This document shows, piece after piece, positions 1,499-59,288 of a DNA stretch of 64,000 nt (the stretch's first letter is position 1; every line of letters begins with the position of its first letter). The position numbers and the translations under genes were made by a program. This DNA comes from Octopus vulgaris (taxonomy: Eukaryota): NCBI GenBank assembly GCA_951406725.2, contig OX597826.1, positions 11,470,001-11,534,000 on the forward strand, in the 5' to 3' direction. Below the pieces are notes generated by a model. The model did no database searches, had not been told where the DNA came from, and was given only the letters and a program-made list of their open reading frames with translations.

Positions 1499-1795
1499 AA
1501 TTCTGTTGTGTCTGGGGGGAGTCATTTTCTTTTTGTGCCTTATAATGTAACACACTCACCGGTAAAATTTCTACTTATTTCTTATTTTTATTTTCTAAAA
1601 TTTTCGCTGCGTCTTGCAACCTTTTCAATAGTCTATTTTAGGAGAATAAATTTTAGAAATAAGTGGAACTTTTACCAGTGAGTGTGTTAAATTATAAGGC
1701 ACAAAAAGAAAATGATTCTCCCCAGACACAACCGAATATGCTTCAACACACGAACTCACATAAATAATCTTGCAAACCAAATCCCAAACGAAATA
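1499..1795. mobile_element. Fold-back pair of a short Penelope-like 3'-end element (family also at 55797-55990 and 43770-43870), between (TA)n tracts
   Basis: Arms ~1500-1582 and ~1655-1738 are reverse complements; the right arm matches 55850-55990 closely; the left arm continues into an HHR motif. Confidence 0.65.
1595..1631 (-). ncRNA. Minimal type-I hammerhead ribozyme, U3-A8 variant
   Basis: Minus strand reads cta-TTGAAAA-G-GTTGC-aagac-GCAGC-GAA-AATT-T-tag: stem I, core, stem II, GAAA, palindromic stem III, UH site. Confidence 0.6.
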
Positions 1796-1864
1796 TATAT
1801 ATATATATACATATATATATATATATATATATATATATATATATATATATATATATATATATAT

Positions 1865-2000
1865 AACGGGAAGCTTTATGAAAATAGACAAAAGGCGAAG
1901 GCAGGTGGAATACAAACAAACAATTGTATTAGTATGGCGCTCAGGAATATAAATAAAACAAGTCTTTTACGTTTCGAGCCTACGCTCTTCAACAGAAAGA
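1865..2000 (-). mobile_element. Short HHR-bearing element (A6U family) between two (TA)n tracts
   Basis: Homologous to 42765-42893 and 52971-53066. Confidence 0.7.
1963..2000 (-). ncRNA. Minimal hammerhead ribozyme, A6U variant
   Basis: tcttt-CTGTTGA-A-GAGC-gtag-GCTC-GAA-ACGT-A-aaaga. Confidence 0.65.
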
Positions 2001-2499
2001 TATATATATATATACATATATACATATATATATATATATATATATATATATATATATATATATATATATATATGTGTGTGTGTGTGTGTGTGTGTATATA
2101 TAAATATGCATATATATATACATGCATATTGCTATTTTAATTTTAACTTTCCTATCATATGTAATTTTCTAGATGATGTAATTTAGTTATTCATTTCGAA
2201 TTGAATTGATAAAAGGTGGGGTTTTTTCTAATATTATATATATATATATATATATATATATATATATATATATATATATATATATACATACACGTGAATA
2301 TGAATGTTATGTTCTGTGTTGAACTGTTTGAAAAAACAGACTTAGTCAAACTTTGGTGTCAGTGTGATCCTTGTGTATATTTTTGTTTCGGTGTTTAAAT
2401 GCATTGAGAAGTCTAAAAAAATCAATCTTGTTTACGTTTTGTCCCTTTATGTTCCGTCACGTAGTGTCCGACTAATTGAGTGCAATATAATAGTCCTTT

Positions 2500-2998
2500 C
2501 TACTACAGGCACAGTGTCTAAAATTGTGTGTTGGGAACTAGTCGATTACACCCACGCGGATAAATTGCTTAGTGGCACAAGGCACGAAATTTTGGGGAGT
2601 GGGTAAGTCGATTATATTAGCTCCAGTGATGATCTGGTACGTATTTTACCGACTCCGAAAGGATAAAAAGAAAAGGTGACCTTTGCGGAATTTGAACTTA
2701 GAACGACGAACGAGATACCGCTAAGTATTTTGCCCGACGCGCACACGATTTTGCTAGTTTGCCGCTTTAGTTTGATGAGTAATATTGGTTTCAAATTTTA
2801 ACACAAGGGCAGCAATTTCGGGGCGACTGCAAGTCGATTATGTCCACTCAGTGCTCAACTGGTACTCATTTTGTCGACCCCGAAGGGATGAAAGGCAAGA
2901 GTCGACCTCGGCGGAATTTTTACTCAGACCGTAAAGACGAACGAATTGCCGCTTAGCATTTTGCCCTGCGTGCTAACGATTCTGCCTGGTCACCGCCA
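2500..2998 (-). mobile_element. Two decayed Meta-domain-like SINE copies (family B)
   Basis: Contain the cgaaaggatgaaaggcaaagtcgacctcggcggaatttgaactcagaac-type motif and a tRNA-like head. Confidence 0.7.
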
Positions 2999-3138
2999 TA
3001 AAGTTTAGTGCTTAATATTGAGATCGAACGAATGCTCAGTGTATATAATTAAAGATTAAGTGGCTTGCCCCCATTTTCTCAAATTTTAGGACATATGTAT
3101 AGGTGGCAGTGGTGGTGGTAATATTTTGTGTTATCCCA

Positions 3139-55796: not shown

Positions 55797-55833
55797 CTAT
55801 TGAAAAGGTTGCAAGAGGCAACGAAAATTTTAG
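55797..55833 (+). ncRNA. Minimal hammerhead ribozyme, U3-A8 variant (element continues to ~55990)
   Basis: cta-TTGAAAA-G-GTTGC-aagag-GCAAC-GAA-AATT-T-tag. Confidence 0.62.
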
Positions 55834-57041
55834 GAAAATAAAAATAAGAAATAAGTGGAAATTTTACCACTGAGTGTGTTAAATTTAAAAGCCACAAAAC
55901 GAAAATGACTCTCCCTAGACACAACAGAATATGCTTCAACACACGAACTCATATAAAGAATCTTGCAAACCAAATCCAAAAACGAAATATTTGGGGGAAT
56001 TGTTCAGAAAGGGCGCTAACTCAGGTTACTTCCCACAGATTTTGCTCACACAGCCCCTTGTTACTGTACTTCCCAATCCATGTTAATATTCTGGTCAAGC
56101 ATAACTATTCTAGTTTTTATTTAGATTACTTGTTCAGAGAAAGTGAAATCTTAGTTGGAATAAAATACTTTGAATGCTTTGTGATGTGTCGAAGGAAACT
56201 GAATCTAATTAAACAGATCAATGAAATGCCATGTAATTTATTAAACCTGCTTGAAAAGTCCGTTGAAAGAACATGATTAGATCTGGGGACTTTGAAGATT
56301 TTAGGATTTTATATTTCTGGTCTCAAAATAATTCCAGGCAATGCTCTAAGATAGGGAACTGTTACAGTAAAAGCCTGATACATACTTGGAAGAATGCTAA
56401 GAAATGTCTTTAATAACAGCCCTACTAGCACAAAGCTTGTGTGTCGATTCTTCAGGTATGACACGTATACAGCAAAAGGAATGTTGTCAAGCGGTGGTAA
56501 TAGACATGAAGATCACACATACACACACACGATGGGCTTCTTTCAGTTTCCGTCTATCAAATCAACTCACAAGGGTTTATAGAAGACACTTACCCAAGGT
56601 GCCACATTGAGAGATTGAACTCGGAACCATGTGGTTAGAAATCAAGTTTCTTACCACACAGCCACACTTGAGCCTGTATGATTCTATTTGATATTTTGCT
56701 CCTTAAAGCGGTAGGCCATTTTATAATATTCATTCATTTGAATTTATTTCCCGAAAAAATGTGAGTATCCATACAATACATTTAATTTTAGTCTTTGTTC
56801 TGATGAATTTATTTCCCCTTAAGAAAACTAGAAAAAACTGAGTTGTGTCTTAACCGTTTTCTCTGATAAGAAAGACGCATACTATAAGAGAAGAAGGATT
56901 ACAAGACCCCTCTTCCTCTGCTAATGACTGTGCATGTAGCATATGAAACAAACATTGATGTTTTAAAATCTAGAGTATAATACGGTTATTTATTTTAATA
57001 TAGTTATATTTAATATATTATCTAGTTTATTTCTATATTTA

Positions 57042-57556
57042 GATGCTTGGAGTGGCTGTGTGGTAAGTAGCTTGCTTACCAACCACATGGTTCCGGGTTC
57101 AGTTCCACTGCGTAGCACCTTGGGCAAGTGTCTTCTACTATAGCCTCAGGCTGACCAAAGCCTTGTGAGTGGATTTGGTAGATGGAAACTGAAAGAAGCC
57201 CGTCATATACATGTATATATATATATGTATGTGTGTGTATATGTTTGCTTGTCTGTGTTCGTCCCCCCGATATCGCTTAACAACCGATGATGATGATGAT
57301 GATGTGTGTGTGTGTGTGTGTGTGTGTGTGTGTGTGTGTGTGTGTGTGTGTGTGTGTTTGTGTGTCTGTGTTTGTACCCCCAACATTGCTTGACAACCGA
57401 TGCTGGTGTGTTGATGTACTCGTAACTTAGAGGTTCGGCAAAAGAGACCGATAGAATAAGTACTAGGCTTACAAAGAATAAGTCCTGGGGTCAATTTGCT
57501 CGACTAAAGGCAGTGCTCCAGCATGGCCACAGTCAAATGGCTGAAACAAGTAAAAG
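57042..57556 (+). mobile_element. Family A SINE with duplicated internal microsatellite-tail junction
   Basis: The cccc..at(c/t)gctt(a/g)acaaccgatg segment occurs twice around a (TG)n tract. Confidence 0.88.
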
Positions 57557-59253
57557 ATTTTAAAAAAAAGAGTACACGTATTCTAATTAACTCTATCCAT
57601 AAACGTTGAGTATAATACATGAGGGTGTGTATATGTGCCTATGAAATATATGTTCAGTTGAACATCTAAATATCCTGGAAATAGCATAATTTATATATGC
57701 AGATGTTGATATAGATATCTGCATAAATCTTCAGATTTACCAGATAGTTTAAGTTTCATTTTTTTTTTTTTTTTTGGCATATGGAATCGCCGGCGGAGGA
57801 AGAACGGTCTTGTAATGATACACATTGAATCACAAATACGCAGTTTGTAGAAGCTCAGTAGATTTTTATTTCGGCTTTTATGTATTTATTCATTTCTGTT
57901 TTTGCGAAAGTAATGAAACTACGGAACAGGCAGGAACGTCGAAATATAAGTGTAATATATGCATACTCACAGCAGCTTTCAGTAGATAAATGTGAATAAA
58001 TTAACATTATAAAGTGCTCTACTGCTTTAAAAAAAAGGCCTAGATCTTAGACGAAAGCTTTGCAATATATACAATGCTATATATTAATGATGCATGAATG
58101 TTAATGCCATCAATATATCTATCTCCCGAGATTGGTTGTTGTCTGTCTATCTTTATATTTGTATAGATGTCCAGTTATTCGCCCATCTGTCCGTTTGTCT
58201 GTCAGTTTGTTGCTTTGCCTGTCAATTATTTGCATATCTATCAGCCGGTTTGTATAATCATCTGTTCAAGTAGAACACACACCAACTCGCACACACTTAC
58301 ACACTCACACACACACACGCACACACACACGCACTTATAGGCATACAAATGTCTTTCTATGTATGCATGTATGTATGTATGTATGTATCCATCTATCTAT
58401 CTATCTCCTCATCCATCCCCCATCTATCTATCTATCTATCTATCTATCTATCTATCTATCTATCTATCTATCTATCTATCTATCCATCTATCTATCTATC
58501 TATCTATCTATCCATCTATCTATCTATCCATCTATCTATCTATCTATCTATCTTTCCATCTATCTTCTCTATCTATCTTCTCTATCCATCTATCTTCTCT
58601 ATCTATCTATCCATCCATCCATCCATCCATCCATCATCCATCCATCCATCATCTATCTGTCTATCTATCTATCTGTCTGTCTATCTATCTATCTATCTAT
58701 CTATCTATCTATCTATCTATCTATCTATCTATCTATCTATCTATCTATCTATTTAACTACATACATATGTACGTGTGTATGCGTGCGTATGTGTATGTGC
58801 TTGTGTGTGTGCTTTTGTGTGTGTATATCCATCTACCGCTTTGTCCGTAAAACAATCCTCTCTTATTCTGTTCGCCCAGCCATCCCATCTTTTGTCTACA
58901 AATCTACAGACACACTGACACACACGCACACACAGACACACACACACAATGCATACGGAAATATACGGAAGTAGCCATCTTCCCTACATATTTCTCTGTC
59001 AAATAAACTATCAGTCCAGATACACACACAAGCACATGCTCAAACACACACATGCATAGACGTACATACACTCCGCAACTTTCATGTACATATACACATG
59101 CACAAATGCATATGTGTGTGTGTATGTGTGTGTGTATATATATATATATATATATATATATATATATATATATATATATATATATGTATATATACTAGGG
59201 ACAATTTCTTCTATTATATATATATCCCTTCTCGGGATCTTTCCTTCTCCTTT

Positions 59254-59288
59254 GTTTCTGACAAAGAGCTCCGCTCGAAACGTTAAAC
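59254..59288 (+). ncRNA. Decayed minimal hammerhead (G8A) in element 59225-59388 between TA tracts
   Basis: gttt-CTGACAA-A-GAGC-tcc-GCTC-GAA-ACGT-T-aaac; downstream ttcctgagcg...taatac shared with the A6U family. Confidence 0.6.

Follow-up and report, generated by a model that had tools for sequence, protein, structure and literature searches.

Ten sequences with the form of hammerhead ribozymes lie in a 64-kb stretch of the Octopus vulgaris genome, here called the window (contig OX597826.1, positions 11,470,001 to 11,534,000 of the forward strand; G000:C13:11470001-11534000 in an assembly of 2.8 Gb and 227 contigs). We consider it probable that they are minimal type-I hammerheads belonging to the pseudo-long terminal repeats (pLTRs) of several families of Penelope-like elements (PLEs), that their copies are now short dead fragments, and that the pair between positions 3 and 8 of the catalytic core is kept by selection on master elements for a cleavage-competent fold. 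Selection acts on those few masters and not on the window's dead fragments, and RNA cutting by the motifs is a prediction from their sequence. Central to this reading is a swap of the 3-8 pair between two sister families, one with U3-A8 and the other with G3-C8, a difference that likely reflects selection keeping the pair.

Hammerhead motifs in the window and the genome

The window is AT-rich and dense in microsatellites. A strict hammerhead descriptor that left positions 3, 6, 7 and 8 free matched seven motifs in it, six of the nine cited in a preliminary description of this DNA and another at 24039-24105. Six of the seven are Watson-Crick at 3-8; 60 block-shuffled windows gave a mean of 0.47 matches and a maximum of 2. 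A relaxed descriptor recovered eight of the nine cited motifs versus a mean of 0.3 (maximum 2) in 30 shuffles, and by neither descriptor is the hit rate equal to that of shuffled sequence. All nine are present where the preliminary description placed them, on the minus strand for five (1595, 1963, 15747, 45176 and 53002), and they fall into five families, F1 to F5, as it had estimated. The minimal type-I topology (stems I and II, N3-U4-G5-A6-N7-N8-A9, GAA, A15.1-U16.1 and H17) is found in F1, F3, F4 and F5. The palindromic stem III that had been claimed is present in every window motif, with one mismatch at 45289, and the extra purine claimed to follow A9 occurs in most motifs but is absent from those at 45176, 45289 and 24039.

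The G3-C8 family, F4, is represented by a motif at 15747..15797 (-) with core GUGAACA, a 7-bp stem I, a 5-bp stem II and a 6-nt palindrome as stem III; both descriptors found it. F1, the U3-A8 family, comprises motifs at 1595..1631 (-; core UUGAAAA, 4-nt palindromic stem III) and 55797..55833 (+), each matched by both descriptors and also recovered by homology. They lie in fragments at ~1500-1635 (-), which is joined by an inverted truncated arm at ~1635-1796 (+), and at ~55787-55973; homology revealed a further F1 3' fragment without a ribozyme at 43773..43872 (+). F2 has C3-G8 and a U at position 6, and is found at 1963..2000 (-; fragment 1869-2002, flanked by (TA)n runs) and 42765..42802 (+; fragment 42714-42888), both by both descriptors, as well as at 53002..53037 (-; core CUGUAGA, fragment 52970-53062), where stem I is weakened to 3 bp, including a G-U pair, and recovery relied on homology to the motifs at 1963 and 42765. 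The two F5 motifs have canonical cores, CUGAAGA with one stem II mismatch at 45176..45220 (-) and CUGAUGA at 45289..45333 (+); both came from the relaxed descriptor and homology, and they are the two arms of one inverted pair (~45132-45379). F3 is present as a decayed copy at 59254..59288 (+), in a fragment that starts at 59225. The motif missing from the preliminary description, at 24039..24105 (+) and matched by the strict descriptor, has core CUGAGGA, C3-G8, an 8-nt palindromic stem III and a long loop II of 29 nt, and has one related copy, at another locus (L010).

How abundant are such motifs elsewhere in the genome? Sixty evenly spaced 10-kb samples gave 17 matches, 14 of them Watson-Crick at 3-8 (7 U-A, 6 C-G and 1 G-C), and eight shuffles of this set gave 0-4 matches each, with 6 of 15 Watson-Crick; extrapolation puts the genome total at roughly 65,000 intact motifs. 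Family sizes were counted as exact pattern matches genome-wide with the test positions free, the backward controls all being 0, and pairs were tallied by eye in the first 100 listed matches per family, all from the start of contig C1. Among these listed matches, G3-C8 is present in 95 of 100 for F4 (6,905 matches), C3-G8 in 97 and U6 in 98 of 100 for F2 (8,032 matches), C3-G8 in 89 of 100 for F3 (4,356 matches) and U3-A8 in 91 of 100 for F1 (1,828 matches, with no C3-G8 doubles). In other words, each of F1 to F4 holds one Watson-Crick pair in 89-97 of 100 listed matches, and family consensi with mismatched 3-8 positions, which the preliminary description had proposed as evidence against itself, were not seen. 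Within-family variation is ordinary decay and is uninformative on selection. For example, all seven A8 cases among the listed F3 matches come after C7, and six matches show the mirror C7-to-T change. The A8 at 59254 is therefore CpG decay of G8, and its core CUGACAA, which the preliminary description had included as a natural variant, is a C3-A8 mismatched relic of a C3-G8 family and was discarded as a core variant. F3 must be larger than counted, because its pattern fixed U4 and seven of nine local copies have C4.

All nine multi-copy clusters either have a Watson-Crick 3-8 consensus or are a decayed member of one that does. Three unpaired matches and one A-U match were set aside as singletons with no family behind them, occurring at the shuffle rate, and about 976 kb of sequence yielded no A3-U8 family. 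At least six further hammerhead families (in L094, L066, L100, L102, L110, L132, L137, L126 and L042) were noted, two with U3-A8, one of which has a PLE-A-like 3' flank by eye, and four with C3-G8. The expectation that CUGANGA descriptors would miss most of these ribozymes was borne out, as CUGANGA occurs in 3 of 10 window motifs and 5 of 14 paired motifs of the genome sample. Rfam at its gathering score gave no match in the window or in four element loci (L144, L069, L070 and L133), and the window matches listed by E-value (150 of 522) were all microsatellite hairpins, with no hammerhead among them. Both approaches undercount hammerheads in this genome.

The window holds other repeats. Fragments at 19407-19829 and 20007-20294 (+) resemble a mariner transposase, and short interspersed repeats with microsatellite cores, present in many copies and unrelated to the hammerheads, lie at 6037-6228/43024-43215, 9331-9496, 10059-10352, 22693-23166 and 27480-27770.

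Penelope-like elements and the 3-8 swap

The assignment of the motifs to PLEs, already made in the preliminary description, is supported by frames that join a reverse transcriptase (RT) to a GIY-YIG endonuclease upstream of three of the five cited families, at loci elsewhere in the genome; no PLE coding remnant was found inside the window. A GIY-YIG search of the genome returned 6,136 candidates, and one retroelement protein from this genome has its best named homolog in an O. vulgaris predicted protein, at 57%. The element behind F4, PLE-D, was recovered as a 487-aa piece (L092/L141), in which a domain scan placed GIY-YIG above the cut-off and RT weakly (E 0.075), and as a 1025-aa open frame with RT and GIY-YIG (L144). 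The F4 ribozyme lies ~990 nt downstream of the PLE-D stop on the same strand, with an inverted truncated arm upstream; both long copies inspected are inverted at their 5' side, which hides the start of the frame. The PLE-D endonuclease has 8,209 candidate copies, 100% identical in 38 of 150 scored, and by these sequences PLE-D is a young autonomous element. An intact G3-C8 motif follows all four young copies fetched as well as L144 and L092, and among six older copies the ribozyme is present in three (two G3-C8, one G3-U8), cut off in one and not found in two. Relatives of PLE-D at three metagenome loci (41-46%) showed no motif, their contigs ending too early to reach one. The window's own F4 motif sits in a short PLE-D copy at 15607..15808 (-) that begins 18 nt before position 3, comprises the ribozyme and a long-form 3' tail with a (TA)n run at its end, and aligns with the L144 3' end and tail at 89-90% identity.

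For F1, an endonuclease 42-51% identical to that of PLE-D was found upstream in 1 of 14 copies picked for long upstream sequence, and this copy has a 3' untranslated region in common with other F1 copies. Long (CA/TA)-rich microsatellite tracts occur inside the 3' repeat of PLE-D and of this F1 partner; in L144 those of PLE-D lie ~50-900 nt upstream of the ribozyme. Tracts of this kind in both elements are a possible source of the genome's microsatellites. F2 has a Neptune-like endonuclease upstream in one copy (L133), and another canonical-core family has a linker-less endonuclease upstream in one copy (L134). Two more elements, PLE-A (781 aa) and PLE-B, have RT followed by GIY-YIG in one frame. 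PLE-A carries a U3-A8 motif ~800 nt after its stop, and a partial upstream repeat is seen at L061 and L064; at L064:1081-2517 a frame without a Pfam match overlaps the RT frame from upstream and is possibly a frameshifted ORF1. The PLE-B motif has C3-G8, C4 and a U10.1-U11.1 mismatch, and stands at L070:5306 (+), L070:2498 (-) and L074:1840 (-); a relative at L034:2377 (+) has U4. The hammerhead thus lies in the 3' pLTR on the coding strand for F4, PLE-A, PLE-B and, in one copy each, F1 and F2; an inverted 5'-truncated arm, an optional tail and (TA)n targets were all observed, as for PLEs. A CX2-5CxxC linker precedes the endonuclease in PLE-A, PLE-B, PLE-D and the F2 partner; it is not in the L134 element.

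A tree of ten rows, built without reference PLE sequences, joins PLE-D (G-C) and the F1 partner (U-A) as sisters with support of 100/99 and sets both far from PLE-A (U-A), at about 25% identity; outside the sister pair its branches are long and poorly resolved. Since the G3-C8 family follows PLE-D and the U3-A8 family its sister protein, the swap took place between sister lineages. Aligned F1 and F4 motifs differ in both bases of the 3-8 pair and of one pair in stem II, and 48 of 48 cells are paired, the four plus four copies counting as two events and not eight. The earlier claim of compensatory change at 3-8 therefore stands as a real double change of U-A versus G-C between sister lineages; the selection for self-cleavage that it attached is only inferred, because copies came from uncut or rejoined RNA and successful families have U6, C4 or weakened stems.

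Copy ends and competing explanations

The short copies preserve information about the RNA from which they were made. Forty F4 copies were sampled in genome order and not counted genome-wide; in 37 of them the 5' start falls at most 25 nt before position 3, with a sharp edge ~23 nt before the core. For short copies that extend to the A at -23, the base immediately beyond it is G in 10 of 13 from the genome-order set and in 5 of 8 from the top hits, at a place where the element itself has C or T; by eye, nine of these 15 extra G are explicable by an inverted arm, a duplication or a microsatellite and six are not. F1 shows a like edge in 4 of 6 sampled copies and at 55797 (by eye), and F2, F3 and PLE-A copies mostly extend further upstream. 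Copying of the cap G occurs in other retroelements. By analogy, the F4 edge and its extra G suggest capped 5' ends, with a cap G copied from a transcript that starts immediately ahead of the ribozyme; no report of cap copying in PLEs was found in the literature searched. Alternatives for the sharp edge are a stall before the upstream microsatellite and an intron end, which F4 upstream sequence resembles and which Penelope of D. virilis has at that place (PMC4209133, PMC2377424), although a spliced small first exon is at odds with the lack of common bases beyond one G. At the other side of the cut, the 3' ends of F4 copies fall at +75 to +91 in 16 of 24 and at +148 and beyond in 8 of 24 (the 28 top hits less 4 that did not match the descriptor), followed by (TA)n or host DNA. 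Such ends are in line with the PLE tail and with the pair of internal start sites measured in an anole PLE (PMC11167929).

We hypothesize that transcription would start in the pLTR just before the ribozyme, and that the element protein would begin reverse transcription internally at tail sites downstream of it, as measured for the anole PLE, copy uncut RNA and insert the copy. Cutting would be a slow side step, likely as a dimer via the palindromic stem III or helped by the element protein; it would strip off the capped 5' end or release a unit from a read-through transcript and would not be what sets the copied ends.

Several observations weigh against maintenance of these motifs for cleavage in PLEs. 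F2, among the most numerous families, has U at the normally invariant A6; C occupies position 4 in most local F3 copies and in PLE-B; and stem I is nearly missing, with G-U at 10.1-11.1, in both of the intact young PLE-A copies inspected (these weakened ribozymes lie in the L061 and L063 3' repeats). For each of the eight motifs tested, two strands have a better fold than the double-hammerhead, by 7-15 kcal/mol. As monomers, window motifs have a stem III of 0-2 bp overall and 0 bp where the palindrome is four bases; at 55797 and 15747 the lowest-energy monomer fold contains stems I and II, at 1963 and 42765 it largely does, and at 1595, 59254 and 45176 it does not. Descriptor scans found no hammerhead after a further element, PLE-C (L073, L079), whose 3' region past the endonuclease is duplicated and contains a microsatellite. 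The PLE links of F1 and F2 amount to one copy each, and F3 and F5 are without any. Of 84 copies drawn from nine families, a single one begins no more than 3 nt from the cut, and 61 hold the whole core; the idea that copies begin at the cut site was accordingly rejected, and in 2,466 of 3,143 exact matches to post-cut 26-mers the 10 upstream bases are kept exactly, about as expected from 2-3% drift. Because copies span the cut site, the template RNA was uncut or rejoined. Additionally, the tree as drawn would permit as few as two changes of the 3-8 pair (the minimum is two or three), and outside the ribozyme F1 and F4 DNA is not significantly alike, its similarity being equalled or exceeded in 126 of 2000 shuffles, so that their homology rests on protein and position.

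What else could have produced these patterns? The fold might persist because the Penelope protein binds it or is positioned by it, with cleavage weak or dispensable and core changes tolerated as long as the shape survives. That families which are abundant or intact have U6, C4 or weakened stems would fit this idea, as would copying from uncut RNA, the normal in vitro insertion by catalytic mutants of the anole PLE and its lack of RNA ends at the cut (PMC11167929), and the success of Naiad PLEs without canonical motifs (PMC8557442). We nevertheless regard it as rather unlikely, as the active fold includes the 3-8 pair (PMC3088659, PMC8495972), this pair is restored after double changes, and G5, A9, GAA and the A15.1-U16.1/H site are retained, a retention that the descriptor partly imposes. 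A second idea, the model of Cervera and de la Peña, in which the ribozyme cuts both repeats, the unit is rejoined as a circle and reverse transcription crosses the junction, would account equally for copies that span the cut and for palindromic stem III in all families, but the 5' edge of F4, often with an extra G, fits a linear capped end, and we think a circle improbable here. Finally, the paired cores could be chance states of a few masters, paired without selection. Two or three independent changes would suffice for this on a poorly resolved tree, and copies of one family are not independent evidence; set against it are the nine clusters with their paired consensi, the two transversions that a U-A to G-C change requires and the same U-A swap published in schistosome PLEs (PMC4209133), which together make an accident of founders very improbable. 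Selection on masters for a cleavage-competent fold is thus the explanation that we favor.

Implications and comparison with known systems

The role of hammerheads in PLEs is an open question (PMC8557442, PMC11167929). Tentatively, we propose that PLE-D may be the first case in nature of a G3-C8 core in an element that is now spreading, and that its ribozyme would fall within 60 nt of the capped end of the transcript; a cut would then uncap the RNA and stop protein synthesis, and internal reverse transcription from two tail sites to the cap would yield 160-220-bp ribozyme copies with a cap-derived G. If true, this would explain the abundance of solo minimal hammerheads in animal genomes and give the ribozyme a testable regulatory job. 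We are also drawn to the natural series in young elements with intact proteins, which spans C-G, U-A and G-C (two of them in sister lineages), U6 and C4 and allows ribozyme speed to be compared with copy number and tested with the cognate protein.

Much of this system has precedents. PLE pLTRs carry minimal hammerheads with low in vitro activity, including a U3-A8 core in Schistosoma mansoni (Cervera and de la Peña 2014, PMC4209133), and the octopus motifs share their type-I topology, palindromic stem III, extra base between 9 and 10.1 and G10.1-C11.1, as well as the pattern of many families of mostly solo copies and opposite-strand pairs. The S. mansoni U3-A8 families (~1,300 hits) have cores UUGAUAA and UUGAAAA, those of PLE-A and F1 here; in contrast, none of the 56 representatives in the text of Fig. 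S3 of that paper has G3-C8, U6 or C4. Its descriptor began with cuganga, and no cephalopod is listed in its accessible text. Natural U3-A8 covariation, a slow A6C variant and a U10.1-U11.1 mismatch were described by Perreault et al. 2011 (PMC3088659), so that U3-A8, a change at A6 and U10.1-U11.1 (here in PLE-B) are common to both sets; those variants are rare and prokaryotic or from phage, and neither G3-C8 nor A6U is named in the core-variant section of that paper. Lünse et al. 2017 (PMC5785218), by the paper's title and according to a review (PMC6765202), reported reduced palindromic stem III, PLE association and dimer cleavage, and their hammerheads may already include G3-C8 or U6 cores. 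The large system proposed in the preliminary description is borne out in its numbers, with thousands of copies per family, but its standing as an unannotated new system is not supported, PLE minimal hammerheads and the U3-A8 core having been published already (PMC4209133, PMC3088659). An octopus repeat annotation (PMC13282606) lists Penelope families, and the words "ribozyme" and "hammerhead" occur 0 times in its main text; no report of octopus hammerheads was found in the literature searched. Nor was natural G3-C8 or A6U found there, subscription papers lying outside that search, so that absence from print is not established.

The closest mechanistic parallel is Poseidon of Anolis (PAc; Frangieh et al. 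2024, PMC11167929), in which a pLTR ribozyme likewise lies upstream of two internal reverse-transcription starts, targets are AT-rich and uncut RNA is the main template. In PAc cleavage needs protein, and C3G/G8C partly rescues the hammerhead; G3-C8 is thus an engineered rescue mutant there and the natural state of a young family here. PLE-D is distant from Poseidon, has a Cys linker before its endonuclease (Neptune/Nematis type) and, unlike Poseidon, has a frame that does not appear to start inside the ribozyme. Non-LTR retrozymes (PMC7229834; bioRxiv 10.64898/2026.07.22.740005) similarly carry type-I hammerheads in PLE-derived non-coding repeats, but they are head-to-tail tandem arrays, whereas the octopus copies are dispersed single or inverted fragments, and no array with a hammerhead per unit was found in the window. 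Taken together, the PLE hammerhead system and the U-A swap were known; the octopus adds a young G3-C8 family with a U-A sister, families with U6 and C4 cores, and a sharp 5' edge that may be capped.

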